Shown here piece after piece: positions 4,453-32,000 of a stretch of DNA of 32,000 nt. The notes beneath the pieces are model-generated. The model was not told the DNA's origin. It saw only the letters and a program-made list of their open reading frames with translations, and searched no databases. The position numbers and the translations under genes were made by a program. Position 1 is the stretch's first letter, and the number at the start of each line of letters is the position of its first letter. The stretch covers positions 1,530,001 through 1,562,000 of the forward strand of contig NC_009483.1 of the NCBI RefSeq assembly GCF_000016745.1. The letters are read 5' to 3'. This DNA is from Geotalea uraniireducens Rf4 (GTDB lineage Bacteria > Desulfobacterota > Desulfuromonadia > Geobacterales > Geobacteraceae).

Positions 4453-4572
4453 GGGGAAATTGTAGCGGATAGATGGGTGGTTGGCCAGCGAAAGTTGCCT
4501 TTGGAAAGATTGAACCTGGAGAAGATATCCCACCATTAAAATGAAATTCCGAAGAAAGCCCGAGAAATAAAA

Positions 4573-4601
4573 TTGAAAAATTACCCTTTAAGGGTTATAG
4601 T
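4573..4601 (+). promoter_or_regulatory. sigma70-type promoter of mqsRA with a putative MqsA operator palindrome in the spacer
   Basis: -35 TTGAAA (4573-4578), exact 17-nt spacer, -10 TATAGT (4596-4601). The spacer holds the palindrome ACCCT-TTA-AGGGT (4583-4595), which resembles the E. coli MqsA operator ACCT-N3-AGGT. Confidence 0.5.
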
Positions 4602-4606
4602 GAACT

Positions 4607-4906
4607 ATGGAAAAGCGACGTCCCCATTATGACCTCAAGTCGATCCAGGCACAGATGGACTGCATTGAGGCAATGAACCTGACCATGACCGCCCGACACG
4701 GCATCAAAGCGATCGGAATGGCCTTGGGAGATGCGCTGGTGGTAATCAAGAGGCTTTCAATGGGAAATTTTTATAAGGCCATGACAGTTCATGCGGACAG
4801 CAGGGTTTGGCAAGATGTATATCACGCTGAATGGAAAGGAAGGGCCTTGTACATCAAGTTTCAGCGACACGAAGAATTCTTTATCGTGTCGTTCAAGGAG
4901 CGTTGA
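4607..4906 (+). CDS. mqsR: type II toxin MqsR (mRNA interferase)
   Basis: 99 aa. Blocks shared with E. coli MqsR as I recall it: MEKRxPH at the N-terminus, FYKxMT, WQDVY, and IVSFKE at the C-terminus. The toxin gene precedes the antitoxin, the hallmark mqsRA order. Confidence 0.9.
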   Translation: MEKRRPHYDLKSIQAQMDCIEAMNLTMTARHGIKAIGMALGDALVVIKRLSMGNFYKAMTVHADSRVWQDVYHAEWKGRALYIKFQRHEEFFIVSFKER

Positions 4907-14628: not shown

Positions 14629-14655
14629 ACCGATAACAATCGCAGCAAGGATGAC

Positions 14656-14826
14656 ATGACTGTTCCAAAGAATATATTTCTGCTTCGCAGGGGCCGGTCC
14701 GGCAGAGACTCCCTGATCCTCAAACAAAGCGACCTGCCGCTTCGCTTCACCTTTTCCGGCAAGTACTACGTGGTGGAATTGACCCGGAGCGGCAAATTGA
14801 TAATGAAAGCCGAAGAAGTCGCTTGA
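14656..14826 (+). CDS. candidate 56-aa small protein at the 3' end of the ABC operon (MTVPKNIFLLRRGRSGRDSLILKQSDLPLRFTFSGKYYVVELTRSGKLIMKAEEVA)
   Basis: AAGGA lies 4 nt upstream of the ATG. The ORF sits between the ATPase stop and the first terminator. It is below the ORF-track cutoff, and I recognise no family. Confidence 0.35.
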   Translation: MTVPKNIFLLRRGRSGRDSLILKQSDLPLRFTFSGKYYVVELTRSGKLIMKAEEVA

Positions 14827-14872
14827 TCTGAGCAAGCCAGAGCCGTAAGGCTGTTAGCCAGCAATGATTAGA

Positions 14873-14910
14873 GGCGGATCGCGGGGATACCCCGTATCCG
14901 CCTTCTTGCG
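14873..14910 (+). terminator. rho-independent terminator (first of a tandem pair)
   Basis: GGCGGAT..CGGGG-ATA-CCCCG..ATCCGCC bipartite stem (14873-14902), followed by TTCTTGCGTTT. Confidence 0.6.
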
Positions 14911-14944
14911 TTTAAAAAACGGAAAATCAGTAGTGCCTCCTTCA

Positions 14945-14974
14945 ATGGGGGGCAGTACGCTGCCCCCATTTTTT
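14945..14974 (+). terminator. rho-independent terminator (second of a tandem pair)
   Basis: ATGGGGGGCAG-TACG-CTGCCCCCAT stem followed by TTTTTT (14969-14974). Confidence 0.65.
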
Positions 14975-15100
14975 AAGGGAGTTCACATATCTACACATCA
15001 ATGAAAGGAGGCAGGTTCATCTGGCATTGATCGATGCAATTGTCAACCCGTTCAAGTGCAGGAGTGCGCACACGAACACATTTACTTTCAGGAGGTTGTT

Positions 15101-16452
15101 ATGAGACAGAGAAGTCTGATACGAGTTGCTCTTACCTTGGTGGCGGTAAGCTGCATGAGCACAGGGGTATTTGCCATGGAACACGAATTTCACGGTCTGC
15201 TCCGCATCAAAGGGGATTTCACCAATTTCGATCAGGCCGGGGGAAATGACGTCTGGAAAGCCTCTACAAGAGTACCGGCAAACATTCTTTCCCAGGGAGC
15301 TACGGGAAAAAGCTTCTTTTACTCGGAGCAGCGGGCCAGGCTTCTCTATATTGGCACACTGAGTGAAGACGTGAAGGTCGTGACCCAGTTTGAGATCGAT
15401 TCCCGTTGGGGCGATACCTCCCAGTCAACCGCAACGACCCGCAATGTCGGCGGCGCCATGGAAGCCGACCAGGTCAACCTGGAAACCAAGAACGTCTATA
15501 TGCAGTTCAAGGTTCCCTATCTGCCGACAACGGTGAAGGCTGGCATTATTCCATTCGACGACTCCTACAAGGGAGTATTCCTTAACACCGATATCGCCGG
15601 AGCAGTGAGCACAAGCCAGCTGAGAGACAATCTGACACTGACTGCCGGTTGGCTGCGAGGTTATGACAACAAGAATTTTAACGGAGCCGATTCCACAATT
15701 CCGGCGGTAAACAGTTCTTCGGACGGTAAGGGGACTTCCGGTTTCGTTCCCGGCCGCTACTCTCTCGATCTGGCCATCCTGGATCTCAAGTATGCCATGA
15801 GCAAGGAGCTGACAGTGGGCGGTTCCTACTACATGACGTACGATAATCTGACGAACGGCACCAACATTCTGAGCACCGTCGGCCTGAATGCGGCTGCCAC
15901 CTTCGGACCGGCGTCAGTGGACGGCTTCGTGCTCGTTCAGCTTGGTGACAACCCGACCAACAACTTCGGTCGTCCCGGTGCGAAAGTGGCAGCCTTCGCA
16001 GCCAATCTGGGGGGCAAGCTGAAGACCGGCCCCGGTATGGCACGGGCTAACCTCCTTTACTCCTCCGGCGACAACGGCAAGGGAAATGTCACGGCCTTCC
16101 AAGGGGTGAACCAGCTCGGCGACGGCAACGCCACCTCAACCTTCTCGGCAGCCAAGATGACCATGCTGATCACCAACACCAAGTATGCGGCCAATATACC
16201 GACCGTGGCATTATCAACACCGTTTCCAACTACGACATGGGGGTGATGGGCGGTTTCTTCGGCTATGATGTGAATATCGATAAAGTCTTCGGCTCCGCGA
16301 ACGTCGGCGTGGCATCCATAGCCCGTGAGAACCCCTTCAAGCCGAAGAACCAGAAGACCAACGACTTCAACAGCAACTACATCGGCACAGAGGTCAACGC
16401 CGAAATCGGGTACAAGATCAGCGAGAATCTGACCGCCAGCCTGGCTGTGGGA
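15101..16452 (+). pseudogene. outer-membrane beta-barrel porin (Geobacter-type, possibly OmpJ-like) interrupted by a frameshift near 16196-16200
   Basis: SD CAGGAGG precedes the ATG at 15101, followed by signal peptide MRQRSLIRVALTLVAVSCMSTGVFA. Alternating beta-strand pattern throughout. The frame ends at 16246 (..NIPTVALSTPFPTTTWG*), but porin-like sequence continues in the frame shifted by one nucleotide (TDRGIINTVSNYDMGVMGGFFGYDVN...IGTEVNAEIGYKISENLTASLAVG). Confidence 0.6.
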
Positions 16453-17376
16453 CGCAAACTCCCTTCCGGTGAGCGCGAACTTTTTCTGGCCGGCGACCGG
16501 ATCATTCGCTATTACCATCAGGGAACCGAGCTGAAGCAGGTTTCCGAAACAGCAATCGACAAGACGGCAAAGATCCTCGGCATTGACACCGCCGATCTTG
16601 ACGGTGACGGGATCCCCGAAGTCTATGTCACCATAATCGACAGGGAAACACTGGTTTCACAGGTCTATCTGCCGCATGAGGGGAGGCTTGAAAAGATTGC
16701 GGAAGGACTTCCCTACTTCTTCCGGGGGATCGAGGATGATGACAAGGGGAGGAAAATCCTTGTCCAGGAGATGGGGGTAAACGGGGAGTTTTACGGCGGT
16801 GTGCTGGAGCTGGCCAAGACGGGAACGAAGTTCGAAACGAGGAATCCCCGGAAACTCCCCCGGTCCGGTAATCTTTACAACTTCAACTCCTTTTCCGATG
16901 CTGCCGGAAAAGGCTATCACGTGATCATGAACGGTGACGGTTACCTCGTCGTTACGTCCCGGGACGGCAGAGAATTGTGGCAGAGCGGCGAAAAATTCGG
17001 TGGCTCGGACAGATACTACAAGCGGGAAACCCTGGAAGAGAGGACCTCTTTCGGCGACCAGTACCGCTGGTTCTTCCTCGCCCAGCGCATGATCGTCACG
17101 CCGCGGGGAGAACTGCTCGTTCCCAGGAACGACGGGTTTTTCGTCGTGGGTAACCTGCGTTCCTACAAAAAACATACGTTCCATGTTTTACGCTGGACCG
17201 GCTCGCTTCTTGAGGAAAAATGGCGCAGCAGGGAGTACCCGACCTATCTGGCTGATTTCGCCTACGATCCGGAGAGCAGAGACCTGATTCAACTGGAGGT
17301 GATTCAGGGTGTGAGCCTTGTCAGCAAAGGACAGTCGGTGATTTCGGTGAAACGGTTTCCAGAGGGTGAACATTGA
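16237..17376 (+). CDS. chimeric ORF: porin C-terminal strands (to about 16452) fused in frame to an FG-GAP/VCBS-repeat-like protein that lacks its own signal peptide
   Basis: The first roughly 70 aa continue the upstream porin. From about 16495 the sequence changes character (GDRIIRYYHQGTELKQV...IDTADLDGDGIPEVYVT, an FG-GAP-like Ca-binding loop, then a beta-propeller-like repeat pattern). There is no SD or signal peptide at the ATG at 16237. Confidence 0.5.
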   Translation: MGVMGGFFGYDVNIDKVFGSANVGVASIARENPFKPKNQKTNDFNSNYIGTEVNAEIGYKISENLTASLAVGRKLPSGERELFLAGDRIIRYYHQGTELKQVSETAIDKTAKILGIDTADLDGDGIPEVYVTIIDRETLVSQVYLPHEGRLEKIAEGLPYFFRGIEDDDKGRKILVQEMGVNGEFYGGVLELAKTGTKFETRNPRKLPRSGNLYNFNSFSDAAGKGYHVIMNGDGYLVVTSRDGRELWQSGEKFGGSDRYYKRETLEERTSFGDQYRWFFLAQRMIVTPRGELLVPRNDGFFVVGNLRSYKKHTFHVLRWTGSLLEEKWRSREYPTYLADFAYDPESRDLIQLEVIQGVSLVSKGQSVISVKRFPEGEH

Positions 17377-17784: not shown

Positions 17785-19584
17785 ATGAAGAGAGGTGCAT
17801 TGGGTACTGGAGGCGGACTGGAGCATACAATGCTACATCAGATAATTCACTCGATCAGGTGGTTGCGGTTTCCGGCCACGCTCACCCTGTTCTTTCTCCT
17901 ATTCGCGACGGCTCCCTTCACCGAGGCCTTTGCCGGAGAGAAGACCATCCGCGTCGGTGGCAATCACGACTATCCGCCCTACGAATTGGTCGACAAAAAC
18001 GGTCAACCGGCAGGTTTCACGGTTGATCTGCTTCGGGCAATCGCCGAGGTCATGGGCATGAACGTCGATATCCACCTGGGCGAGTGGGCCAAGAGGCACG
18101 ACGACCTGAAAAACGGCATGATCGATATGACCCTGGGGATGAACAACTCGGAGGAGCGGGACAAGATCTTCGATTTCACCTCGCCCCACACGATTGTCCA
18201 ACAGGCAATCTTTGCGCGCCGGGACTCACCAGTCGTCAGCTCCCTGGAGCAGTTGCGCGGGAAGAAGGTGATACTCCATCGTAACGGGATCATGCACGAG
18301 CGCCTCAGGCAGCTCGGTTTCGAGAAGGATCTGATGTACGCCGATACGCCGGCGGGTTCCCTCCGCCTGCTGGCATCCGGGCAAGGGGATTACGCCGTGG
18401 TTGCCTTACTCCCCGGGATGTATATCATCCGGGAAAACAAGCTTACCAACCTCGTCCCCGTGGCGCGGAATGTGGCCTCGTTCAAGTTTTCCTTCGCCGT
18501 GCGGGATGGAAACACGGAACTGCTCTCACAGTTGAACGAGGGGCTGGCTATCCTTAAAAAAACCGGACAGTACCAGGTGATTTATGACAAGTGGCTCGGG
18601 GTGCTGGAGCCTGCGCGGGTTTCGTGGGAAAAGGTCATTCAGTATGGTGCCATGGTTCTGGTTCCGCTCATGCTTCTTCTCACAGGCACCGTCGTCTGGT
18701 CGCGCACCCTTCAGAAAAAGGTGATCCAGCGCACCGAAGAGCTGGCGCAGGAGGTGGCCGAAAAAAAGCTCGCACTGGAAGAATTACGCCTTCATCAAGA
18801 CAAGCTTATTCAGGCTGATAAGATGACATCACTCGGCATCCTCGTTTCGGGGGTCGCCCACGAAATCAACAATCCCAATGGTCTCATTCTCCTGAACATG
18901 CCGACCCTGAAAGAGGCTTTCCAGGATGCCGAGACGATTCTGGACGGGTATTTCCACGAACACGGCGACTTTGCGTTCGGGGGCATCCCGTACTCACGTA
19001 TGCGGGACATGCTTCCGCAACTGCTTGTCGAGATCAATGAAGGAGCAAAGAGGATCAGACGGATTGTCGACGATCTGAAAGATTTCGCTCGCCTTGATAA
19101 GACCGAATGTCTCGAACCGTTTGATCTCAATGATGTGGTATGTGTAGCAGTGCGCCTAATCGACACTACCATCCACAGTTCAACAAACAGATTTATGATA
19201 ACATGTGCCGACAACTTGCCGAAGGTGCTTGGCAATGCCCAGAGGATTGAGCAGGTTGTGGTCAATCTGATCGTAAATGCCTGTCAAGCCTTACCAAACA
19301 AGACTCGGGGCATTTCTCTCACGACGTATTATGACCGACCGGAGGGAAGCGTGGTATTACAGATAAAGGATGATGGAATCGGCATAGCTCCTGAGCACCT
19401 TTCCCGCATCACCGATCCGTTTTTCACCACCAAACGCGAGTCCGGCGGGACAGGTCTCGGGCTCTCGGTTTCTAATTCAATCATCAAGGACTACGGTGGT
19501 TCACTTGAGTTCGCTTCGACTTTCGGAGTCGGGACGACCGTTACCCTTACCTTGCGGACTATCGAACAGGAGACGCTAAAATGA
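17785..19584 (+). CDS. sensor histidine kinase with a periplasmic SBP-family-3 (amino-acid-binding-type) sensor domain; an alternative start is at 17830
   Basis: N-terminal signal/TM, then IRVGGNHDYPPYELVDKNGQPAGFTVDLLRAIA (SBP_bac_3-like), a second TM, a coiled coil, H-box SGVAHEINNPNG, N-box VVNLIVNACQAL, G1 DDGIGI and G2 GGTGLGLS. Confidence 0.87.
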   Translation: MKRGALGTGGGLEHTMLHQIIHSIRWLRFPATLTLFFLLFATAPFTEAFAGEKTIRVGGNHDYPPYELVDKNGQPAGFTVDLLRAIAEVMGMNVDIHLGEWAKRHDDLKNGMIDMTLGMNNSEERDKIFDFTSPHTIVQQAIFARRDSPVVSSLEQLRGKKVILHRNGIMHERLRQLGFEKDLMYADTPAGSLRLLASGQGDYAVVALLPGMYIIRENKLTNLVPVARNVASFKFSFAVRDGNTELLSQLNEGLAILKKTGQYQVIYDKWLGVLEPARVSWEKVIQYGAMVLVPLMLLLTGTVVWSRTLQKKVIQRTEELAQEVAEKKLALEELRLHQDKLIQADKMTSLGILVSGVAHEINNPNGLILLNMPTLKEAFQDAETILDGYFHEHGDFAFGGIPYSRMRDMLPQLLVEINEGAKRIRRIVDDLKDFARLDKTECLEPFDLNDVVCVAVRLIDTTIHSSTNRFMITCADNLPKVLGNAQRIEQVVVNLIVNACQALPNKTRGISLTTYYDRPEGSVVLQIKDDGIGIAPEHLSRITDPFFTTKRESGGTGLGLSVSNSIIKDYGGSLEFASTFGVGTTVTLTLRTIEQETLK

Positions 19585-20993
19585 GCGAGAATCTTTATCC
19601 GCCCTTTGGTATTCTGCTTGTCGATGATGAGCCGGCATGGATACTTAGCCTCTCTGTCAGCCTTGAACGCTGCGCCGGCATAACCAACATAATTACATGC
19701 ACGGATAGCCGCGAAGTTATAAAGACGATCGAGCGTCAGGAAATCGGACTCGTCATTCTCGACCTCGTCATGCCTCATCTGGGTGGAGAAGAGGTCCTGG
19801 CATTGATCCGCGAACAACATCCCGAGATCACAACCATTGTTATCAGTGGGATGAATCAGCTTGAAACCGCGGTCCGCTGCATGAAGATGGGGGCGTTCGA
19901 CTACTACGTCAAAACAGACGATGAAGACCGGCTGATCAATGGCGTCATGCGTGCGATAAGTATGATCGAACTTAAGCGGGAAAACCGGGAGATGTCCAAC
20001 CGTATTCTCGATGGCAGCCTGAAACATCCGAAAGCTTTTGCCGGCATTGTTACCACCAATCGTGCCATGCATGCCATCTTCGCATACATCGAGGCGGTAG
20101 CCCAAAGCCCCCAGCCTCTCCTGATCAGCGGCGAAAGCGGCGTGGGAAAGGAGCAGATAGCCCAGGCAGCCCACGTTCTGAGTGGTTGCCGGGGGCCTCT
20201 TGTTGCGGTGAACGTTGCCGGACTGGATGATTCTGTGTTTGCCGACACCCTGTTCGGTCATGTACGCGGGGCATTTACGGGGGCGGAGCAGGCACGACGC
20301 GGCATGGTGGAAGAGGCCGCTGACGGAACCCTCTTTCTCGACGAGATCGGTGATCTCAGCATTCCATCACAGGTAAAACTACTCCGCCTCCTCCAGGAGG
20401 GAGAATACTTCCCCCTCGGCAGCGACCGTCCGAAACGGATTAAAGCGCGTGTTATCGTTGCCACCCACCAGGACCTGGCAGCCAAGCAGTCGGCCGGGAC
20501 GTTTCGCCGCGACCTTTATTACCGGCTCTGTACCCACCATATTCAGGTTCCCCCTCTCAGGGAGCGGCAAGAGGATATTCCCTTGCTACTCGACCATTTT
20601 CTCAAGGAAGCCGCCGGCGCTCTTGGCAAGAAGAAACCTACGCCTCCGAAGGAATTGGTGCAATTGCTCGCAACGTACAAATTTCCCGGGAACGTCCGGG
20701 AGTTAAGGGCCATGGTGTATGATGCGGTCAGCATCCATCGAGACAGAATCCTCTCCATGGAATCATTCCTCAAGGCAATCGACAGGCAGGACGGGCAGCG
20801 GATCGAATTATTATCTCCTCCTCAGCGGCATAATCTTTTTGGCGGAATCGAGCGTCTGCCAACCTTCAGCGAAGCCGCCGATCTATTGGTAACTGAAGCG
20901 ATGTCCCGTGCCAATGGGAACCAGAGCATTGCCGCCCGCCTCCTCGGTATTACCCAGTCGGCACTGTGCAAGCGGCTTAAACGGGTCAAATAA
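19581..20993 (+). CDS. sigma54-dependent response regulator (NtrC family: REC, AAA+ and Fis-type HTH domains)
   Basis: The ATG overlaps the kinase stop (ATGA). REC domain with LVILDLVMP, Walker A GESGVGKE, sigma54-contact GAFTGA, Walker B TLFLDEIG, C-terminal HTH GNQSIAARLLGITQSALCKRLKR. Confidence 0.92.
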   Translation: MSENLYPPFGILLVDDEPAWILSLSVSLERCAGITNIITCTDSREVIKTIERQEIGLVILDLVMPHLGGEEVLALIREQHPEITTIVISGMNQLETAVRCMKMGAFDYYVKTDDEDRLINGVMRAISMIELKRENREMSNRILDGSLKHPKAFAGIVTTNRAMHAIFAYIEAVAQSPQPLLISGESGVGKEQIAQAAHVLSGCRGPLVAVNVAGLDDSVFADTLFGHVRGAFTGAEQARRGMVEEAADGTLFLDEIGDLSIPSQVKLLRLLQEGEYFPLGSDRPKRIKARVIVATHQDLAAKQSAGTFRRDLYYRLCTHHIQVPPLRERQEDIPLLLDHFLKEAAGALGKKKPTPPKELVQLLATYKFPGNVRELRAMVYDAVSIHRDRILSMESFLKAIDRQDGQRIELLSPPQRHNLFGGIERLPTFSEAADLLVTEAMSRANGNQSIAARLLGITQSALCKRLKRVK

Positions 20994-22776: not shown

Positions 22777-23191
22777 AGCCAGGATTTCCCGCCATGGAAA
22801 ATTTCAGGTATCCGGATCGTCCGGTCGTAAAGTACGTCCGTGACATAACCGGTTACATCATTGAGAATAATTGAAAAAATTGTGCGATAGAATTGAAGAA
22901 AATAAATTATACAAAACTAATCGTAAAAACAAGATAAAAAATAAACAAATCTAAACCACACCCATTGGTAGGGAGGCAAGGCAGACAGGGCAGGAGAAGT
23001 CGGACCAGGCAGTGCCGATATATTTAATTGACATACAGTTTGTGTGTGATAAAAAAGACCTTGTAGGTCTTGTTGCCGACCCGGGGTTTTTCTTAAGATT
23101 TGTTGAATGGAACTCTTGAGTTGCTGCACAGAGGTGTTAACGTTATTGTGCGCTAATGTTTTGGCTTAACTACGACAAAGGAGGACGTACG

Positions 23192-24232
23192 ATGAAGTGG
23201 AAAATTTCGTGTGGCATCATGGTGTTAATGCTTGCGGGAGGCGTTGCCTGGGGAAAGGACGACATAATGAGCCAGGCCCGGGCAATCTTCAAGCCTGTGC
23301 CGGCAAAGCCTCCGGTTCTAAAGGAGAACCCGTCCACTCCGGCCAAAATAGAGCTGGGGAAAATGCTCTTTTTTGACCCGCGACTATCGTCATCAAACCT
23401 GATCAGTTGCAATACCTGCCATAACGTCGGGCTCGGCGGGGTAGACATCCAGGAGACATCCGTCGGTCACGGTTGGCAGAAAGGCCCGCGTAACGCTCCG
23501 ACGGTGTTGAACGCCGTGTTCAACCTTGCCCAGTTCTGGGACGGTAGGGCAAAAGATCTTGAGGCCCAGGCCAAGGGACCGGTTCAGGCATCGGTGGAGA
23601 TGAACAACAAACCGGAGCGGGTGCTGGAAACCCTCAATAGTATTCCAGGCTATCTGCCGCTATTCAAAAAAGCATTTCCCCGCGACAAGGATCCGATAAC
23701 CTTTGACAATATGGCCCGTGCCATCGAGGTGTTCGAGGCTACGCTCATCACGCCGGATTCCCGCTTTGACCGCTTTCTCAAAGGAGACCGGAAAGTGCTT
23801 GCAGCCAAAGAGCAAGAAGGGTTGAGGCTTTTCATGGACAAGGGGTGCTCTGCCTGTCACAACGGTGTCAATATCGGCGGTACCGGATACTTCCCCTTCG
23901 GAGTCAAAGAGAGCCCTGCCGCCGATGTCCGACCCACGGAAGACCTCGGGCGCTTCAAGGTTACCAATACGGCTGCGGACAAATATGTCTTCAAGTCTCC
24001 ATCGCTCCGCAACATTGAACTGACGCCGCCCTACTTCCACTCCGGCAAGGTATGGAAACTGGGCGATGCGGTAGAGATCATGGGGGCTGCGCAGCTCGGC
24101 ATCACTCTCAACGATGATGAAGCCGGTAAAATCGTGGCGTTTCTCAAGACCCTTAACGGCAAGCAGCCGAAAGTCGTTTATCCGATCATGCCGCCCAATT
24201 CCGATGCCACGCCGAAACCAATGCTGCAGTAG
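23192..24232 (+). CDS. ccpA: di-heme cytochrome c peroxidase (CcpA/MacA family)
   Basis: SD AAAGGAGG precedes the ATG at 23192, followed by a signal peptide. Two CXXCH motifs (CNTCH, CSACH). Family blocks LFFDPRLS, GPRNAPTVLNA, FWDGRA and PSLRNIELTPPYFHSG. Confidence 0.92.
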   Translation: MKWKISCGIMVLMLAGGVAWGKDDIMSQARAIFKPVPAKPPVLKENPSTPAKIELGKMLFFDPRLSSSNLISCNTCHNVGLGGVDIQETSVGHGWQKGPRNAPTVLNAVFNLAQFWDGRAKDLEAQAKGPVQASVEMNNKPERVLETLNSIPGYLPLFKKAFPRDKDPITFDNMARAIEVFEATLITPDSRFDRFLKGDRKVLAAKEQEGLRLFMDKGCSACHNGVNIGGTGYFPFGVKESPAADVRPTEDLGRFKVTNTAADKYVFKSPSLRNIELTPPYFHSGKVWKLGDAVEIMGAAQLGITLNDDEAGKIVAFLKTLNGKQPKVVYPIMPPNSDATPKPMLQ

Positions 24233-24239
24233 CTTACCA

Positions 24240-24286
24240 GGGGAAAGGGCCGGCAAATCTTGGCCGGCCCTTTCCCCGTTTGTTTG
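24240..24286 (+). terminator. rho-independent terminator after ccpA
   Basis: 15-bp stem GGGGAAAGGGCCGGC / GCCGGCCCTTTCCCC with an 8-nt loop, followed by GTTTGTTTG. Confidence 0.75.
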
Positions 24287-24322
24287 ATGCAATTCGCGAA
24301 AAGATAAATTCAAAGCAACGGA

Positions 24323-24799
24323 ATGGAAAAGAGACCAATTATGAAAAAGCCAACCGCTAAAACCGTAATGTACGCGGCATTTGCCGTTATCATCATACTG
24401 GCGGCTATCCAGTTCGTTCCTTATGGTCAGAAACGGAGCAATCCGCCAATCATCAGAGAGCCGGCCTGGAGCTCACCGGCAACCAGAGCCCTGGCCAAAC
24501 GGGCATGTTTTGACTGTCATAGCAACGAAACTGCATGGCCATGGTACAGCCGGGTCGCACCGGCCTCATGGCTTATCCATAGGGACGTCAATGGCGGACG
24601 AAGGGTCTTGAATTTTTCTGAATGGTCGGATGGGATGCGGGAAGGGGAGAATCCGAAAAAAATCAGGGAAGAACTGGTTGAAGGAGAAATGCCGCCGATT
24701 CAGTATACTCTTGTTCACGCCGACTCACGGCTGACAAAGGAAGAACGGCAACAATTGGCGGATGGCCTGGACGCAACCGCTGTGCAAGCGAAGCGCTGA
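24323..24799 (+). CDS. heme-binding-domain (Haem_bd, PF14376-like) membrane-anchored protein; an alternative start is at 24341
   Basis: N-terminal TM anchor, then CFDCHSNETAWPWYSRVAPASWLI..D...G...LNFSEW and EMPPIQYTLVH, as I recall for the Haem_bd family. Confidence 0.7.
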   Translation: MEKRPIMKKPTAKTVMYAAFAVIIILAAIQFVPYGQKRSNPPIIREPAWSSPATRALAKRACFDCHSNETAWPWYSRVAPASWLIHRDVNGGRRVLNFSEWSDGMREGENPKKIREELVEGEMPPIQYTLVHADSRLTKEERQQLADGLDATAVQAKR

Positions 24800-24817: not shown

Positions 24818-25345
24818 CTAAAATCCTGTTTCGTCAATTCGTAACAGTCTATGACCTTCAAAAACGGATAGTATTTCAATATTACTCTCCGTTAGCCTGT
24901 CAGCGTTGTCCGGTTTGGTTTTTGCTTACGTCCCGTAGGGACAGAATACTGGTAGCCGGGGAATTCATTCCCCGGTCATCCAGGCGAAATATCATCACGT
25001 CACGTACGTGACGTGGGGAAATATAGCATCTCATCCGGGGGATGAATCCCCCGGCTACATTCGAACGCCCCTAATGGGGCTTAACAACCTTGATGCACAA
25101 ACCAAACCGGACAACGCTGTTAGCCTGTAAACAATTCGATATTTCCTGAATATCAACTCTCTTATGTCGGGATTGGCTATTTCAAGTACAGTCCTGCCCA
25201 TCCGAGGATTATCAGGCAAAGAATCTTCGGCATGTTCAATTAGCTGATCGACAAAAACTGCCGTTCTTTCTGGGCTGTCTTTTGAAATAAATTCTTCAAT
25301 TTCGATTAATTGTTCAAGAGCTTCATTTGTCCATTTTATTTTCAT
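24818..25345 (-). pseudogene. ParE/RelE-family type II toxin gene disrupted near its 3' end by a MITE
   Basis: Residues 1-75 (MKIKWTNEALEQL...FRKYRIVYRL) are ParE-like. After codon 75 the present ORF reads into the element (TALSGLVCAS...). Removing 24901-25128 restores ...YRLTESNIEILSVFEGHRLLRIDETGF*, with the stop at 24820-24818, a canonical ParE C-terminus (99 aa). Confidence 0.8.
24901..25119. mobile_element. 219-bp MITE-like non-autonomous element with 21-bp perfect TIRs and a 9-bp target-site duplication
   Basis: TIR-L CAGCGTTGTCCGGTTTGGTTT (24901-24921) is the exact reverse complement of TIR-R (25099-25119). Direct repeats TTAGCCTGT lie at 24892-24900 and 25120-25128. The interior is packed with palindromes (CCGGGGAAT..ATTCCCCGG, CACGTCACGTACGTGACGTG, CCGGGGGAT..ATCCCCCGG) and has no ORF. 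Confidence 0.8.
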
Positions 25346-25351
25346 TCCGGA

Positions 25352-25636
25352 TTATTCCTTGCTTCTTCTTGCAGCTAGAGCCGCTTTGATTTCATCAGTG
25401 TTGTATGTCCTTCCACTTTCGGCATCTGATATTCCTCTGCCAACAGAATCAAGAAAAGATTTTTTGTACACCAAATCGTCATAGTCATCCGGTGACAATA
25501 GTACTCCGGCCGGCTTTCCATTCTGCGTAATAATCAAGGGATGTCCAGATTTCTGAAGACTTTTGAACCACTTGGAGATGCCTGTCTTAAACTCGGCAAT
25601 TGGAATTATATCGTTTTTGATCGAAATGGTTTTCAT
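25352..25636 (-). CDS. Phd/YefM-family type II antitoxin
   Basis: 94 aa. IPIAEFKTGISKWFKSL...HPLIITQNGKPAGVLLSPDDYDDL is the Phd/YefM fold signature. The stop lies 6 nt upstream of the ParE-like toxin start. Confidence 0.87.
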   Translation of the reverse strand: MKTISIKNDIIPIAEFKTGISKWFKSLQKSGHPLIITQNGKPAGVLLSPDDYDDLVYKKSFLDSVGRGISDAESGRTYNTDEIKAALAARRSKE

Positions 25637-25852
25637 GTGATGGCTCCTTATTTGGATTTATTTATAAGCCATAATGTAGACCACTTTAAAGGCCAAAACA
25701 AGTTTAAATATTCCGGATATAGGTTGATACGCAGCGAGGCGAGGCTTGCTTGATAACATCACGGTAACAGATTGGATACAAAATTACTTGACCTACGAAG
25801 ATCATGTATAGTACGATACATAAGAAATAAGCGGCAGAGCTCGCCGTAAATA

Positions 25853-25926
25853 GGCAATAATGCTAAACCTTCCGTGAGGAGGAGCGGAAAGCTACAGGTC
25901 TCCAGGAGACAGGCAGCCCGGTTGCC
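25853..25926 (+). ncRNA. candidate GEMM-I-like (cyclic dinucleotide) riboswitch aptamer in the leader of the multiheme gene; unverified
   Basis: GGCAA(25853-57)/UUGCC(25922-26) closing helix. GCUAAACC, then hairpin CUUCC-GUGA-GGAGG with a GNRA loop, then AGCGGAAAGCU (compare Vc2 GGCAAACC..GAAA..GACGCAAAGCC). 3' block GGCAGCCCGGUUGCCGA (compare Vc2 GGUAGCGGGGUUACCGA). The second helix is shorter than usual. Confidence 0.25.
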
Positions 25927-26152
25927 GAAATATCCCACGTATACAACCTCCACATTTTTTGTGCACAAAATCTGCTGTGCGCACCCACGTAACAAGAAGC
26001 CATTCACAAGCGTTAAAGCATGCAGTGCTCACGACGATCAAGGTATGTTCCGAGCAAACAACGAAAGGAGTCATGACATAACGGCTGGAAAGCAATTTGT
26101 GAGCAAGTAAACGGTCTGATGCAGACCAAACAGAAATCAAAGGAGATTTTAT

Positions 26153-28486
26153 ATGAAGATTTCCAGTAAGGTATTAGTGCTATTCTTCTTCACCATTGCG
26201 CTTGGAGTCGGCCAGTTGTGGATTTCGGATGCGACTGCACAATCATCGTACTTCACGAGCAGAGGCTGCGTTAACTGCCATGCAGCCCCAACAGTTGCCA
26301 CCTGCAACGGCTGTCATCACCATGGGAATTCATCGTTGAAAGCAGTCACCGACAAGACTTCCTACGCACCTGGGGAGACGGTAACGGCAACCCTCAGCGG
26401 CGGCAGCAGAACCGGCTGGATCAGGGCCATTCTGTATGACCAGAACAACACTCAAGTTGCCGTATCGAACGGGAACGCCAGCGGCATGGGTGGTTCAACC
26501 ACGTTCCCGGCGGCTCTGACCGCATCGGCGCCAACAACGCCGGGCAGCTATACCTGGAAGATGGCCTATTTTGGCAACCAGGATGGCACAGGGACTGGGG
26601 ATGTCCACAGTGAGGTGACTGTCAACACCAATTCATTCACCGTTGCCGCACCACCAGCACCAGCCGACACCACTGCACCGACTGTAAGCACCTTTACCCT
26701 GCCTGCAACCGCCACCAGCCTGAACGTGCCGGTTACCGCATTTACCGCAACGGACAACGTCGGCGTTACCGGTTACATGATCACCCTGAGCGCTACAGCT
26801 CCTTCTGCCGCTTCTACCAGCTGGACTGCTTCAGCCCAGTCAAACGTCACAGCCGCAGGTGCCGGCACGACAACGTTCTATGCCTGGGCCAAGGATGCGG
26901 CGGGTAATGTGTCGCTCTCCAAAAGCGCCAGCGTGAGCATATCGCTGCCTGACACTGCTGCACCGGTAGTTTCTGCCTTTACCCTGCCGGCGACCGCAAC
27001 CAGCCTCACCGTTCCGGTCACAGTATTCACCGCCACGGATAACGTAGGTGTTATCGGTTACTTGGTCACGATGAGTGCCACGGCACCTTCCGCCTCAGCA
27101 ACAGGTTGGACGGCAACAGCACCGGCGAGCGTTACCGCAACAGCTTCCGGCCTTACTCTGTTTTACGCCTGGGCCAAGGATGCAGCGGGTAATGTTTCAC
27201 TTGCCAAGAGTGCCGGCGTGACAGTAACTATTACTACAGCTGACACCACACCACCAACCCTGACCATCTCGGCCCTTGCAAATGGCGCCTACACCAACAA
27301 AGCCACTCTCAACATCAGCGGCAATGCCAGCGATGCAGGCGGACTCCAGTCCGTTACCGTTAACGGCGAGGCAGTTGTTGTCAACCCCGACGGGTCCTTC
27401 AGCGCCGCCCTGACCCTTGCAGTCGGAGCCAATACCGTTACGGTTATCGCCACCGACAAGGCCGGCAACAAGCAGACTGATATCCGTACAATAACCTTTG
27501 ATCCAGCTGCACCGGTTCTCACCGTCTCGGCCCCGGCCGATAACAGCAGCTCAGCCCAGGCGTTCATTACCCTGACCGGCGCTATTAACGAAACCTCTAC
27601 GGTTACGGTCACAGACAACAACGGCAGCCCGCAAGCCGCCATCATCAACGGCAACAACTTTACCGCCACCGCCAATCTGGTGTCGGGCGTCAACACCATC
27701 GTTATCACTGCTGCCGACCTGGCAGGCAACATTACCAGCGCCAAGCGGACAGTAACCTATGACAGCGGCAAGATGACTCTGGCGGTGACCTATCCCAATC
27801 AGGACATTACCACCAGGAATTCGAGCCTGGTCCTCAAGGGCAGCATCGTTGACGCGTTAAGCAAAGTTACCGTTAAAATCACCATGAATGGCCGCACCTA
27901 TACCCCTAAGGTCACTAACGGCGCTTTTTCGCAAAAACTCACCTTCACGAAGGCTAAACAGTATTCCATTACCATCACTGCCAGGGATACGGCCGGCAAC
28001 AGCAGTAGCGTAAGTCGCAACGTGATCTACCGTCCTGCCGAAAAGGGTGACGATGACGACGACAATGACAACGACAACGACAACGGAAGCAGCAACGGCA
28101 GCGGCAGCAGCAACGGCAGCGGCAGCAGCACCAGTCACTCCTTCGGCTGGACTAACCCGAAGAGCAGCCACCCTGATTACGTGGAAAAAAACGGCGTCGG
28201 CAACTGCGTCAGCTGCCACAGCATCGATCAGGCTTCAAAGGGGCAGACGATGAGCTGCTACAACTGCCACGGTAAGAAATGGGATACACCTTCGACTGGA
28301 GGCGGTGATTCCGGCGGCAGCGGCAGCAGCACCAGTCACTCCTTCGGCTGGACTAACCCGAAGAGCAGCCACCCTGATTACGTGGAAAAAAACGGCGTCG
28401 GCAACTGCGTCAGCTGCCACAGCACCGACCAGGCCTCCGAGGGGCAGACGATGAGCTGCTACAACTGCCACGGTAAAAAATGGTAG
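26153..28486 (+). CDS. secreted or cell-surface modular multiheme c-type cytochrome (six CXXCH) with Ig-like repeat domains
   Basis: SD AAAGGAG plus a signal peptide. N-terminal paired motifs CVNCH-7 aa-CNGCH. Two tandem modules of about 95 aa and three further Ig-like modules of about 88 aa (..ATDKAGN.., ..AADLAGN.., ..ARDTAGN..). Asp/Asn and Ser/Gly linker, then two near-identical C-terminal di-heme modules (CVSCH-12 aa-CYNCH). Confidence 0.88.
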   Translation: MKISSKVLVLFFFTIALGVGQLWISDATAQSSYFTSRGCVNCHAAPTVATCNGCHHHGNSSLKAVTDKTSYAPGETVTATLSGGSRTGWIRAILYDQNNTQVAVSNGNASGMGGSTTFPAALTASAPTTPGSYTWKMAYFGNQDGTGTGDVHSEVTVNTNSFTVAAPPAPADTTAPTVSTFTLPATATSLNVPVTAFTATDNVGVTGYMITLSATAPSAASTSWTASAQSNVTAAGAGTTTFYAWAKDAAGNVSLSKSASVSISLPDTAAPVVSAFTLPATATSLTVPVTVFTATDNVGVIGYLVTMSATAPSASATGWTATAPASVTATASGLTLFYAWAKDAAGNVSLAKSAGVTVTITTADTTPPTLTISALANGAYTNKATLNISGNASDAGGLQSVTVNGEAVVVNPDGSFSAALTLAVGANTVTVIATDKAGNKQTDIRTITFDPAAPVLTVSAPADNSSSAQAFITLTGAINETSTVTVTDNNGSPQAAIINGNNFTATANLVSGVNTIVITAADLAGNITSAKRTVTYDSGKMTLAVTYPNQDITTRNSSLVLKGSIVDALSKVTVKITMNGRTYTPKVTNGAFSQKLTFTKAKQYSITITARDTAGNSSSVSRNVIYRPAEKGDDDDDNDNDNDNGSSNGSGSSNGSGSSTSHSFGWTNPKSSHPDYVEKNGVGNCVSCHSIDQASKGQTMSCYNCHGKKWDTPSTGGGDSGGSGSSTSHSFGWTNPKSSHPDYVEKNGVGNCVSCHSTDQASEGQTMSCYNCHGKKW
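26666..27241 (+). repeat. tandem coding repeat, two units of about 285-291 bp (Ig-like modules)
   Basis: The units start at 26666 (DTTAPTVSTFTLPATATSLNVPVTAFTATDNVGVTGY...FYAWAKDAAGNVSLSKSASV) and 26951 (DTAAPVVSAFTLPATATSLTVPVTVFTATDNVGVIGY...FYAWAKDAAGNVSLAKSAGV). Confidence 0.85.
28115..28483 (+). repeat. direct duplication of a 168-bp di-heme module (copies at 28115-28282 and 28316-28483, period 201 bp)
   Basis: By manual alignment the copies differ at only 6 positions. Five of these cluster at 28224-28238 (SIDQASK versus STDQASE) and one lies at 28276. Confidence 0.9.
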
Positions 28487-28732: not shown

Positions 28733-30649
28733 TCATCTCTTGTCTTGCATGCGATTAAGCTCAACAATCTTTTTTCTTATGATTTCGTCAGGATAAAGGC
28801 GCAGTGCCGCTTCATATTCCCTTTTGGCATCCTGTATCTTTTCTTCCTTGGCATAAAGCTCTCCGAGGCGTATGTGTGCATCCGGGGAAGCGGGCGAGAT
28901 TTTTATTGCAGCAAGATATGCCCACCGTGCGTTGGATAATTCTCCTTTGCCTTCATATACCAGCCCGAGAAATACATGTGGAACGGGATCATGTGGATTC
29001 AAACGCGCGGCAGTCAACAGCTCACTGGCTGCTTCATCGTACATTTTTTGAATGAGCAGGGATTTCCCAAGGTTGATACGTGCGTTTGTATCACTTGGTT
29101 TGAGTCTTATTGCGGTCCGAAATTCCTCAATCCCTGCCCCTGTTTTTCCCTGTTCGAACAGGGCGATTCCCAAGTTGGTATGAACCCTGGATTTTTTTGG
29201 GCTTTTTCTGGCTACGTCGCTCCAGAATGTTACACTGTCCGCCCATATCGTATTTCTTGCCATGCCGGCTGCCGAGAGGCACAAAATGACGGCACTCAGT
29301 GTTCTGAGCGCGACTTTGGATGCAAAGAAAGATTTCCCCGTACGATGGCTGTAGAGAGATGCGATCCCTGCAATGATTGACATGAAAAAGCCTATGGAGG
29401 GGAGATATGCCCTGTGCTCGAAGATAAGGTCGTCGATGGGAATGATGCTTGACTCTACCGACAGGGTGATGAAAAACCAGCAAATACCGAAGGCAATGAT
29501 TTTGAAAAGATGACGTTCGGGAAGACGACGATCCCTTGACCGGTAAAGTACATATATGCCCGTCCCCAGAATCAGCAGAAGGAAGCCGAGGGGCATCAGT
29601 ACCGCGGAACTGAAAAAGTTTTTCTGGAGAGGGTAATCATAATCGAAATTTTGCCCGATCGGCATAACCAGCAACCGGAGATAGGTGGTGATGACGCCGA
29701 ATTGGGTCATCAGGTAGTCCCATGGGGATACACTGCGAAAATTAACCAGGTTTATCGAGTCGATGATGGCGTCGGATTCGTCTGGTTTTGCCAGGGATGA
29801 TAACTCCATGAGATCGACGGGAATAATTGCCATGGTTAACAGAAAAGGAACCAGTCTGGCAATCCTCTTGCCGATGCTCCCGTAAAAGAAGATAAACTCG
29901 AACAGGGTAATAATGACAGGGAGCGTGAAGGCATTTTCCTTCGTTTTCATGGCAAGAATCGCGGCGATAACAGAAATTACGTAACAGGCCGTGCGGGCAG
30001 TTGTCGTCGCGCCAAGCCTGCCTTTCACATACAGGACCAGCGAGCCGAGATAAAACAGGGTGACGAGTGGAGTGAATCGTTGGATGATGTAGGTTACCGC
30101 CTGGGTTTGCAGCGGATGACAGGCAAAAAGCAAAGCACAGAAAAGTGGCAGGTAGCGCAATTTTACCGCAGGAGAATCGCTTTTCTCCTGTTCGTCCGCA
30201 GCCATTGCAGGAGTCTGTAACGAAAGAGAGAGCAGAAGATAGACAAGCAGGGCGTTTCCGATATGAATGATCAGGTTTGCAACATGGTACCCCCGAACAT
30301 CGAGTCCGTGGAGCGCGTAGTTCAGGGCGAAGGTGAAGTAGGAAACAGGCCGCAGGATAAAGTTGTTTTTGATATCAGGATTAATTCCAAGATTAAGAAT
30401 CCGGTCTGTATCGGCGAAATAGCTGAAATCTTTAATGGCAGGGTTATTCACCAAATACAGATAATCGTCAAACAGGAACGGGGTTGTGACGGTGTTGAAG
30501 TATACGAAAAATCCAGCGGCAATAATGAAAACGACATGCACGAAAGGCTCATGCCACAGACTGATGTCGTCGTTTTCCGTTTCAGGCGACGAGGAACGTT
30601 TTTCGCGGTGAATCTTGTTCTTTCCTGGTATTTTGGAAGATTTTTTCAT
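28733..30649 (-). CDS. polytopic membrane protein with C-terminal TPR repeats; TMTC/PMT-like GT-C glycosyltransferase candidate
   Basis: 638 aa. The N-terminal part has about 10 TM segments with an FLFDDY acidic motif after TM1, as in PMT/TMTC-type GT-C enzymes. The C-terminal 170 aa or so are TPR repeats (NLGIALFEQGKTGAGIEEFRTAIRLKP..., AHIRLGELYAKEEKIQDAKREYEAALRLYP). Confidence 0.7.
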   Translation of the reverse strand: MKKSSKIPGKNKIHREKRSSSPETENDDISLWHEPFVHVVFIIAAGFFVYFNTVTTPFLFDDYLYLVNNPAIKDFSYFADTDRILNLGINPDIKNNFILRPVSYFTFALNYALHGLDVRGYHVANLIIHIGNALLVYLLLSLSLQTPAMAADEQEKSDSPAVKLRYLPLFCALLFACHPLQTQAVTYIIQRFTPLVTLFYLGSLVLYVKGRLGATTTARTACYVISVIAAILAMKTKENAFTLPVIITLFEFIFFYGSIGKRIARLVPFLLTMAIIPVDLMELSSLAKPDESDAIIDSINLVNFRSVSPWDYLMTQFGVITTYLRLLVMPIGQNFDYDYPLQKNFFSSAVLMPLGFLLLILGTGIYVLYRSRDRRLPERHLFKIIAFGICWFFITLSVESSIIPIDDLIFEHRAYLPSIGFFMSIIAGIASLYSHRTGKSFFASKVALRTLSAVILCLSAAGMARNTIWADSVTFWSDVARKSPKKSRVHTNLGIALFEQGKTGAGIEEFRTAIRLKPSDTNARINLGKSLLIQKMYDEAASELLTAARLNPHDPVPHVFLGLVYEGKGELSNARWAYLAAIKISPASPDAHIRLGELYAKEEKIQDAKREYEAALRLYPDEIIRKKIVELNRMQDKR

Positions 30650-30766
30650 CGGTTCTCCAGGCGGCCGGTGGCAGAGATAAGGTCATTGCTTTCTGACACC
30701 TATTAGGAGAAAACGCACATTCTCAATGGCAATATTCTGGCTCCAAGTACGAAATTACAATGATTT

Positions 30767-32000
30767 CTACTTGTGTAAATTCATTTGCCATGGCGGCGGC
30801 CAGATTTTGATTGGATAATTATTGTTTGTTCTCCAAATGCTAAGCTCTTCCTTCCATTTTGGCCATGATGGATCATACGAAAAGTTCATCATCACAGGTC
30901 TATATTGAATAAATGAAACAGATAATGACATCAAAACGAGAATAACCGAAACGTAGCTAAAAAATTTAGAAATAGTTTTATCGTTGATAGCACCAACGAT
31001 TAATACCATAATCATTATACTTGGTGCAAAAGTATAGCGAGGTCCACCGGACATATTAACGGAAAACAATGTTGATATTATTGTAACCAAGACTAATGAC
31101 AACATAATTATCTGGGTATCAAGTTGTTTGAATTTTTTGTATGACAATATAGAGATATAGATAATTATTAATAAGCCAAAGCCGGTTTCTATGAAGTCAA
31201 ACTGATAAGATAATATCGATGGGCCAATAACTGTGGACATTATATTACGAACGGCAGCCTCTATTTGTATTACTGATGGAAAGTTAAATATAAAGAGTCC
31301 TAGAAAAGGCGCAGAGAATTCAAATTTAATTAATTTGCTAATCATATAGACCGGGCTGCAGTATACTAAACGTTGTGACAGTCCAGACTCATGCGTTATT
31401 AGTGAATAAGTAAATACACTAATCTGTACCAATAAACAGGCCATTAATATAGCAGTATGTATTATCACCGGTTTAGATTTTGTTTTTATAGCCTTTAATA
31501 AAAACGCTGGTATCATAACGCATGATAAGATACCGGTTAGACCGTTTAGTGCCAGCAAATAGTATTGAGCAATAAGCACTTTACGATTATTAGCATGATG
31601 GTCATAAAGTAAGATCAAAAAAGAGAGAATGCAAAGCCAGTATTGGACTCCTATTGTAGTAACCCAAATTCTTGCATATGCTAAAACTTGAATAAAAAGT
31701 GCAACGGCAAATTTCTTAAATAGTGTATTAAGTATCGGAATATTCCACCAAATAACAACACTTGATACAAATACCTGTACAAAAAATGCTAGATAAGTAG
31801 TTACGTAAGGAGCATAATCAAGCGGAACCATCATTGCAATAGATGTAGCTATACTGTTATAGAGAGTATTATAACCGAATTGTGGAGATAGTAAATTATT
31901 CAACCATGTATGATTGTATGCATAAGAGAAATAGTTAGTTCCTTCTTCAGCCCAAAAACGTGGTTCGATGAGCATCTCTGGTTGACGTATATATGCAACA
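30767..32000 (-). CDS. AT-rich polytopic membrane protein of unknown function (GT-C-like or polysaccharide-related?), 5' end outside the window
   Basis: The frame is open to the right window edge. More than 400 aa with about 10 or more hydrophobic segments; an acidic FWAEEG motif lies near the N-terminal end. Base composition is strikingly AT-rich compared with the rest of the window. Confidence 0.6.
   Translation of the reverse strand, partial: VAYIRQPEMLIEPRFWAEEGTNYFSYAYNHTWLNNLLSPQFGYNTLYNSIATSIAMMVPLDYAPYVTTYLAFFVQVFVSSVVIWWNIPILNTLFKKFAVALFIQVLAYARIWVTTIGVQYWLCILSFLILLYDHHANNRKVLIAQYYLLALNGLTGILSCVMIPAFLLKAIKTKSKPVIIHTAILMACLLVQISVFTYSLITHESGLSQRLVYCSPVYMISKLIKFEFSAPFLGLFIFNFPSVIQIEAAVRNIMSTVIGPSILSYQFDFIETGFGLLIIIYISILSYKKFKQLDTQIIMLSLVLVTIISTLFSVNMSGGPRYTFAPSIMIMVLIVGAINDKTISKFFSYVSVILVLMSLSVSFIQYRPVMMNFSYDPSWPKWKEELSIWRTNNNYPIKIWPPPWQMNLHK

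Follow-up and report, generated by a model that had tools for sequence, protein, structure and literature searches.

A predicted six-haem Ig-repeat cytochrome of Geotalea uraniireducens, with haem motifs at the two ends of a beta-sandwich rod, is a rare variant of the Gmet_0292 family

Introduction

Geobacter exports electrons to minerals, electrodes and partner cells by way of extracellular cytochromes, among which packed haem wires have been studied most. The nanowire cytochromes OmcS, OmcE and OmcZ hold their haems in a continuous close-packed chain. PgcA (GSU1761 of G. sulfurreducens) is also extracellular but has no such chain: it is a lipoprotein with three mono-haem domains spaced by low-complexity (PT)x linkers, its haem number varies between species, and its gene is under the control of a GEMM-I riboswitch. 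Its haem domains move electrons on their flexible linkers by "tethered diffusion", and the last of them serves as the mineral reductase (PMC11520253; PMC5732950); a 2024 paper presented it as the first electron-transfer protein with redox centres placed nanometres apart on flexible tethers (PMC11520253), and the secreted protein is processed from 57 to 41 kDa (PMC5732950). Here we analyse a gene of Geotalea uraniireducens Rf4 whose predicted product carries six haem-binding motifs at the two ends of a long haem-free middle part. It lies in a stretch of 32,000 nucleotides (the window; contig NC_009483.1, positions 1,530,001 to 1,562,000 of the forward strand), to which all coordinates refer unless another locus is named. 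Handles beginning with L and P designate the homologous loci and proteins.

The riboswitches of this group bear directly on what follows. Geobacter GEMM-Ib riboswitches precede many genes for extracellular cytochromes, pili and polysaccharides; those with an adenine at position 20 (A20) sense cyclic GMP-AMP (cGAMP), and an A20G change switches selectivity to cyclic di-GMP (c-di-GMP) (PMC6456294). The two signals have been tied to different lifestyles, cGAMP to the reduction of particulate Fe(III) oxides and c-di-GMP to electrode biofilms, and selection for faster reduction of oxide picked out mutations that weaken the terminator in the leader of pgcA (PMC6456294).

Results and Discussion

Haem motifs confined to the two ends of the protein

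All 12 cysteines of the 777-residue protein sit inside its six CXXCH motifs, which start at residues 39, 51, 685, 702, 752 and 769. Shuffling the protein 20,000 times gave 0.0025 CXXCH motifs on average and never more than one, so that the six-motif pattern is not a product of chance. A first-pass annotation, made by a model from the sequence alone, had placed the haems exclusively at the two ends, and this is what we find: the motifs start only within residues 39-51 and 685-769, with beta-sandwich domains in between, and every module listed in that annotation was recovered by Pfam, NCBIfam, AlphaFold2 or reading of the sequence (Table 1). The haem-free gap between the two haem-bearing ends amounts to 633 residues, which gives 130 residues per haem overall. 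The contrast that the annotation drew with the packed nanowire cytochromes also holds. OmcS, OmcE and OmcZ are extracellular Geobacter c-type cytochromes too, but their chains have no such gap, and the packed relatives of the C-terminal haem domains described below have 26-35 residues per haem. None of the three nanowire proteins was matched in a PDB sequence search with the six-haem protein.

The predicted signal peptide has a hydrophobic core, and its A27-x-A29 is nearly invariant across 57 homologues; it contains no cysteine that could form a lipobox, all cysteines being in CXXCH motifs. The mature N-terminus consists of a 28-residue peptide with two CXXCH motifs, followed by an immunoglobulin (Ig)-like domain. 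In the 57-sequence alignment, C39, C42, H43, C51, C54, H55, H57 and H152 are invariant. H57, directly after the second CXXCH, and H152, in the first Ig-like domain, are the likely distal haem ligands.

The middle part is a rod. An AlphaFold2 model of the full protein, computed from the same alignment and with the predicted local distance difference test score (pLDDT) averaged in 10-residue blocks, shows six beta-sandwich domains over residues 58-630, with block means mostly of 80-96; confidence is low in short loops of domain 1, in the linkers and at both haem ends. The two Ser/Thr/Ala-rich modules (about 96-99 residues, block means about 79-96) are identical to each other at 68 of 99 positions and match NCBIfam NF047446 (OmpL47-type) with 53.4 bits against a cut-off of 40, and a PDB sequence search matched residues 176-259 to the FN3 domain of chitinase A1 (1k85, E 0.002). 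The three modules that follow (block means 76-95) were recovered by Pfam as Glucodextran_B in three stretches (PF09136, E 2.2e-34) and as Big_13 (PF19077, E 3.5e-13), and the NCBIfam Ca_tandemer model was passed with 59.5 bits against a cut-off of 50. PDB sequence searches with the full protein and with the N-terminal head returned nothing beyond the FN3 match and matches at the level of the haem motif.

By structure, the rod resembles tandem-Ig extenders: Foldseek matched it to GhpA, SiiE, the RTX-adhesin extender 6xi3 and S-layer proteins (E 5e-16 to 1e-9). SiiE and 6xi3 share the fold over residues 58-630 at 23-24% identity; these two, GhpA and the S-layer proteins are all without haem, unlike the protein studied here. 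The idea of a stalk or adhesin, put forward in the first-pass annotation, thus stands as far as the middle of the protein is concerned, which is an adhesin-type rod according to both Foldseek and Ca_tandemer. The two-ended haem layout does not extend to the family, as most members have haems at the N-terminal end only, and the layout cannot be their core mechanism.

A rare variant of a large family

The protein, noted as unusual in the first-pass annotation, is not a one-off. An exact look-up of its sequence in a public gene index gave no record, but our homologue search matched 709 proteins, and the six-haem protein is a rare variant of a large cytochrome family that is annotated and uncharacterised. 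The homologues that carry a name all come from Geobacter, Geomonas, Geomobilimonas, Pelotalea, Desulfuromonas and other Geobacteraceae or Desulfuromonadales. We name the family after Gmet_0292 of G. metallireducens GS-15 (ABB30537.1 / WP_011365648.1), which sits between the DUF2169 gene Gmet_0291 and nrfA (Gmet_0294). Gmet_0292 and its relatives are true homologues, 55-86% identical over the shared part, and have in common the signal peptide, the CXXCH pair, the Ig head, the rod of FN3-like and Glucodextran_B modules and the acidic tail; several also share the GEMM-I leader. The six-haem protein has the CXXCH pair, the head with H57 and H152, and the three Glucodextran_B modules with the NVIYRP/acidic tail.

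Among the best 120 of the 709 homologues, about 100 carry only the N-terminal CXXCH pair, at equivalent positions, and 11 carry C-terminal di-haem modules as well, in one to six copies. The start-to-start offset within the N-terminal pair is 9-12 residues (4-7 between the motifs). Gmet_0292 and most members end at the acidic tail and have two haems, to which the six-haem protein adds two di-haem modules, hereafter beads. In the 15 homologues without C-terminal haems that we compared, the protein ends after the last Glucodextran_B module in an acidic, His-rich tail of the NVIYRPxxDDHDDD type, whereas in the six-haem protein this acidic stretch runs on into a Gly/Ser linker and then into the beads. 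Linkers are Gly/Ser-rich here and Thr/Pro-rich only in P0051 and P0057. Family members range from 531 to 1224 residues, and in L004 and L005 the FN3-like middle modules are replaced by other beta-sandwich repeats; the length range and the swapped domains point to a rod of variable length, as would fit a spacer. As judged from these comparisons, the family core is the signal peptide, the N-terminal di-haem head, the Ig-like rod and the acidic tail, the rod being the part of variable length and the beads an optional appendage present in zero to six copies. Since most members have no beads, the basic role of the family must rest on head, rod and acidic tail.

Published information on the family is sparse. 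The localisation column of a published table lists Gmet_0292 as 'Outer membrane/surface' (PMC10470525), and a published transcriptome table gives its transcripts as increased 2.08-fold in a G. metallireducens-Methanothrix co-culture comparison. Our literature search returned that single transcriptome table entry, no paper studying Gmet_0292 and none citing its accession numbers, and a survey of Desulfuromonadia cytochromes does not mention Ig-like or non-haem domains. At L005, a 216-residue open reading frame (ORF; 3381-4031) lies directly 5' of the gene for a 772-residue two-bead member. It contains just a signal peptide, the two N-terminal CXXCH motifs and the Ig head, and is a head protein in its own right or else a truncated paralogue.

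The C-terminal bead is a common haem unit in a new position

The two beads of the six-haem protein, of 51 residues each, are identical at 49 of 51 residues and 164 of 174 nucleotides, and Tandem Repeats Finder reports the region as 1.8 copies of a 201-nucleotide period with 96% matches. Their pattern is H-x10-H-x11-CXXCH-x12-CXXCH-G-K-x-W. Across 47 two-bead segments neither the second His nor either CXXCH motif varies, and the first His is kept in at least 90%; such a layout, with two distal His and two CXXCH motifs in some 50 residues, fits two bis-His haems. All bead-carrying full-length homologues end in CYNCHG(K/Q/R)(E/K/Q)W. When the two beads were modelled with AlphaFold2 from the 47-sequence alignment, each reached a pLDDT of about 70-80, with about 70-77 for bead 1, and the linker of 16-18 residues remained below 50. 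The bead weakly resembles the second half of a small tetrahaem cytochrome (1m1p, E ~0.1-0.5), and P0121, a fragment of a close homologue, has a precomputed PF09699 match.

Close copies of the bead are few. A scan of one genome per species, over about 185,000 species in a collection that does not include the genome of the window, found them in two species genomes: in a 717-residue protein of a Geobacter metagenome-assembled genome, with one bead, and in a 772-residue protein of Geobacteraceae GWC2_53_11, with two. At the level of a profile the picture is quite different, and the C-terminal module is not unique either. Searching 1.84 billion representative proteins with the bead profile gave 857 proteins at E <=0.001 (down to 1e-104), many of them with 10-31 matching stretches; an earlier word-based search with the C-terminal region, which returned 9 matches and missed known bead-bearing homologues, is superseded by this hidden Markov model search. 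Most of these proteins are packed multihaem cytochromes with 6-66 haems and about 26-50 residues per haem, the most densely packed of them having the 26-35 residues given above. In P0130 (33 haems), P0137 (66) and P0138 (24), the bead is the HPxGW...H...CXXCH...CXXCH repeat unit itself, and many of the packed proteins likewise end in SC(Y/F)xCHGxxW. Their units follow each other every 53-66 residues without linkers (about 28-32 residues per haem in proteins of the P0130/P0137/P0138 type), whereas the two units of the six-haem protein are attached through disordered linkers to the end of a rod that has no haem. No solved structure of the packed relatives was detectable by sequence.

The same beads also occur in other secreted proteins, on stalks of Cys- and Asp-rich repeats (P0133, P0143) or of other Cys-rich repeats (P0183); there, low-complexity linkers space them and an acidic tail often comes after them. 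A non-haem stalk with tethered di-haem beads may be a recurrent design. Found both on packed chains and on unrelated stalks, the bead is a mobile building block that is not unique to the six-haem protein: a common haem unit, here in a new position.

A cyclic-dinucleotide riboswitch in the leader

The strongest functional clue, absent from the first-pass annotation, lies upstream of the gene. An Rfam scan of its 516-nucleotide leader detected a GEMM-I-type aptamer that matches the full model (positions 1-80) of RF03167 with 38.4 bits (E 1.6e-7). The leader of Gmet_0292 (L001/L002) passes the gathering score of RF01051 (41.4 bits against 35). At L010, whose family member has two beads, and at L013 (Pelotalea chapellei) an aptamer likewise lies 5' of the family gene, and L012 has two in tandem, so that four of the eight other distinct loci examined have a GEMM-I aptamer upstream. 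The first aptamer hairpin shows compensatory changes across loci. At L004 and L011, a transcription-factor gene lies directly upstream of the family gene.

The ligand-contact positions of the window aptamer are G20, A47 and C92, the triad of the c-di-GMP type, in contrast to the A20 of cGAMP-type aptamers; position 20 is here the nucleotide just before the first internal helix, in Vc2 numbering by our own mapping. Four of five homologous aptamers have A at this position, and the fifth, one of two Geomonas aptamers, has G. The two Geomonas aptamers stand in tandem in the leader of L012 of Geomonas subterranea (4502-4577 and 4696-4771), one with A20 and the other with G20, and this leader could, judging by these nucleotides, integrate cGAMP and c-di-GMP signals.

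Five homologous leaders form a hairpin of the type AGCCGGG...CCCGGC (-22.7 to -24.4 kcal/mol) that ends at a U-run (at L001 9830-9870, and in L010, L012 and L013). The 3' strand of the aptamer serves as its 5' arm and is thereby sequestered, which is, on paper, the classic design of an ON switch. The window leader has no hairpin at its U-run: the 3' arm is lost and the fold reaches only -8.2 kcal/mol. This loss of the terminator suggests constitutive read-through and is reminiscent of the laboratory-selected mutations that weaken the terminator of pgcA. With no terminator hairpin left, expression of the window gene may have escaped dinucleotide control. A candidate sigma-70-like promoter lies 36 nucleotides 5' of the aptamer, a position that fits a riboswitch leader. 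About 50 nucleotides 5' of the start codon, TGGAAAGCAATTTGT (26092-26106, + strand) looks loosely like a sigma-54 promoter by eye, with GG-N10-GT where GC is expected.

Table 1. Features of the six-haem gene and its leader (window coordinates)
Feature	Position	Strand	Remarks
Candidate sigma-70-like promoter (TTGACC, 18 nucleotides, TACGAT)	25788..25817	+	Consensus scan only, 9/12; weak alone
GEMM-I-type cyclic-dinucleotide riboswitch aptamer	25853..25930	+	Best match RF03167, clan CL00126
Remnant expression platform	25931..25962	+	T-run 25955-25960 kept, terminator stem lost
Ribosome-binding site AAGGAG	26140..26145	+	7 nucleotides 5' of ATG; read directly from the sequence
Whole coding sequence	26153..28486	+	777-residue six-haem Ig-repeat cytochrome, Gmet_0292 family; ORF intact, ATG start
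Sec signal peptide (residues 1-29)	26153..26239	+	Predicted signal-peptidase I site ATA/QSS (cut at the slash), no lipobox
N-terminal di-haem peptide (residues 30-57)	26240..26323	+	CVNCH, 7 residues, CNGCH, HH
Ig-like head domain, beta-sandwich domain 1 (residues 58-165)	26324..26647	+	AlphaFold2: eight strands, block mean pLDDT ~70-94
Two FN3-like / OmpL47-type Ser/Thr/Ala-rich modules (residues 166-264, 265-360)	26648..27232	+	NCBIfam NF047446, AlphaFold2
Three Glucodextran_B / Big_13 beta-sandwich modules (residues 361-628)	27233..28036	+	Pfam, NCBIfam, AlphaFold2
Acidic, then Gly/Ser low-complexity linker (residues 629-659, AEKGDDDDDNDNDNDNGSSNGSGSSNGSGSS)	28037..28129	+	Low pLDDT
Bead 1 (residues 660-710)	28130..28282	+	H662, H673, CVSCH, 12 residues, CYNCHGKKW
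Inter-bead linker, disordered (residues 711-726, DTPSTGGGDSGGSGSS)	28283..28330	+	pLDDT <50 in both models
Bead 2 (residues 727-777)	28331..28483	+	Closes the protein at ...CYNCHGKKW

A stalk with tethered haem domains and its alternatives

Our best reading, in which we place moderate confidence, has the protein exported by Sec and probably extracellular, an adhesin-like stalk that bears haem domains on tethers and works in the manner of PgcA. All six CXXCH sites would bind bis-His haem c, since all 12 cysteines are in such motifs, H43, H55, H57 and H152 are invariant and each bead has four conserved His. The protein would then be released to the cell surface or matrix, where rod and acidic tail would give reach and adhesion to mineral, matrix polymer or a partner cell. 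From typical domain sizes, the six beta-sandwich domains would span roughly 20 nm. Electron tunnelling in proteins is limited to about 1.4 nm. Electrons therefore cannot pass along the rod, and the haems of each end must exchange them with other carriers by collision. By analogy with PgcA, the C-terminal beads could act as tethered, diffusing relay or reductase domains, adding redox capacity at the far end of the rod. The conserved AxA signal-peptidase site speaks for export, and tethering is supported by the disorder of the linkers relative to the beads (pLDDT <50 against 70-80; residues 633-667 are all below 50 except residue 639) and by a bead copy number that varies from zero to six. In PgcA, as here, low-complexity linkers space the haem domains. 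The six-haem protein differs from it in having no lipobox, di-haem instead of mono-haem domains, Gly/Ser/Thr linkers and a folded six-domain rod between its haem ends, and the likeness that we draw is one of presumed function only.

Several observations weigh against this picture. No PgcA chain was among the PDB sequence matches; Foldseek found no match in the PDB for the two-bead model at E up to 10; PDB sequence searches with the C-terminal region and the bead profile gave matches at the level of the haem motif only; and the one cytochrome family of Pfam that came up, PF14537, scored 20.6 bits on the six-haem protein, below its gathering threshold of 25. As for export beyond the periplasm, we recognised no C-terminal sorting signal in the protein, and no secretion or partner gene is a conserved neighbour across the window, L001, L003, L010, L011, L012 and L013; a type I secretion signal and RTX repeats are likewise absent from the protein. 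The riboswitch is the weakest of the set of family aptamers, below the RF03167 gathering score of 59 and without a match in the gathering-threshold scan, and the leaders of L003, L004, L005 and L011 (four of nine distinct loci, the window included) have no riboswitch at E <=0.01. Finally, the family can do its work, whatever that is, without the beads, as most of its members have N-terminal haems only.

Another explanation, which we find unlikely, gives the protein a chiefly structural role, as an adhesin or as part of the matrix. Its haems would not form a relay but would clamp the head domain or dock the protein onto outer-membrane cytochrome conduits or cytochrome filaments, the beads being extra docking sites. 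Most of its mass is indeed adhesin-type beta-sandwich, the two haems of most family members lie beside the mature N-terminus, the acidic tail is conserved in members without beads, and GEMM-I-class riboswitches also control genes for pili and polysaccharides. It is harder to reconcile with the beads themselves, which are the unit that builds packed electron-transfer cytochromes of 6-66 haems, and whose multiplication, up to six copies, agrees better with a gain in redox capacity than with added docking. We consider it rather improbable that the protein is periplasmic, for instance a redox sensor, a spacer or the partner of an enzyme, instead of a surface protein. The only targeting signal we recognised is a Sec signal peptide, with no sign of outer-membrane targeting or secretion, and genes for a CCP_MauG di-haem peroxidase and a Haem_bd protein lie 2-3 kb upstream; these neighbours, however, are not conserved elsewhere and are separated from the gene by a toxin-antitoxin pair, while the Glucodextran_B, Big_13 and Ca_tandemer domains, the riboswitch regulon and the published surface localisation of Gmet_0292 all point outside the cell. 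Quite improbable, too, is a pro-protein in which the stalk is a carrier for secretion or retention and the beads are cut off within the low-complexity linkers as small soluble or mineral-bound electron shuttles. Disordered acidic and Gly/Ser linkers do flank each bead, Geobacter does process secreted cytochromes, as the shortening of PgcA illustrates, and there are short bead-only metagenome proteins (P0127, P0129, P0134), but several of the short bead-only records stem from contigs some 1 kb long and are likely fragments, the locus has no linked protease gene and no cleavage motif is conserved.

If the reading of a stalk with tethered haem domains is correct, the bead-bearing variants would be a second, independent case of tethered haem domains, this time carried by a folded rod. 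Within Geobacteraceae the Gmet_0292 family is widespread, is often placed behind the riboswitch class of pgcA and omcS, and is uncharacterised in function; it also offers a natural series in rod length (531-1224 residues) and in bead number (0-6). The orthologue of G. metallireducens is genetically tractable, and together these features make the idea directly testable. As a far more speculative extension, to which we give very little credence, neighbouring molecules in the Geobacter matrix might join head to tail or form a lattice, one contributing its N-terminal head and the next its C-terminal beads to each contact. If so, this would produce a redox-conducting scaffold of defined spacing, with electrons hopping from bead to head without filaments; evolution would tune how long the rod is and how many beads it bears, and cyclic-dinucleotide signalling would set its production.

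Genomic surroundings

The window is chromosomal DNA of a member of the Geobacteraceae; its LigA is 85% identical to the LigA proteins of Geotalea daltonii FRC-32 and Geotalea sp. SG265 and 97% identical to metagenome proteins. The six-haem gene stands alone and has no conserved operon partners, its neighbours being different ones in the window, L001, L003, L010, L011, L012 and L013. Upstream on the same strand (23156-24799, +) are a gene for a MauG/MbnH-like di-haem peroxidase (CCP_MauG, E 2e-59) and then one for a mono-haem Haem_bd protein (PF14376). Between these and the riboswitch leader lies a pair of genes for a ParE toxin and a Phd-YefM antitoxin (25055-25636, - strand), with 40-41% G+C against a window average of 54%. 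A functional link of the six-haem gene to the CCP_MauG and Haem_bd genes was considered and rejected, because the neighbours are not conserved at other loci and the ParE/Phd pair intervenes.

On the other side, two ORFs of 638 and 402 residues (28733-31975, - strand) converge with the cytochrome gene. The first (48% G+C) encodes a multi-pass membrane protein with C-terminal TPR repeats and an N-terminal membrane part that matches no Pfam family; as a bare idea, it might be a glycosyltransferase that acts on the Ser/Thr-rich rod. The second (34% G+C) matches no family. The pair may represent a surface-glycan island that was acquired. At L012 the downstream neighbours of the family gene encode GT87 and GT2 glycosyltransferases.

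Farther upstream in the window, an ABC importer (binding protein, fused double permease and ATPase) is followed by porin-like and FG-GAP repeat proteins (10792-17376, +), the porin-like one partly similar to an outer-membrane porin of the Desulfovibrio type; next come a sensor kinase that includes a solute-binding domain and a sigma-54 activator (17785-20993). At L010, a leader resembling the cspA thermoregulator (3825-4188; E 3e-8, below the Rfam threshold) precedes a cold-shock protein gene about 1 kb 5' of the family member.

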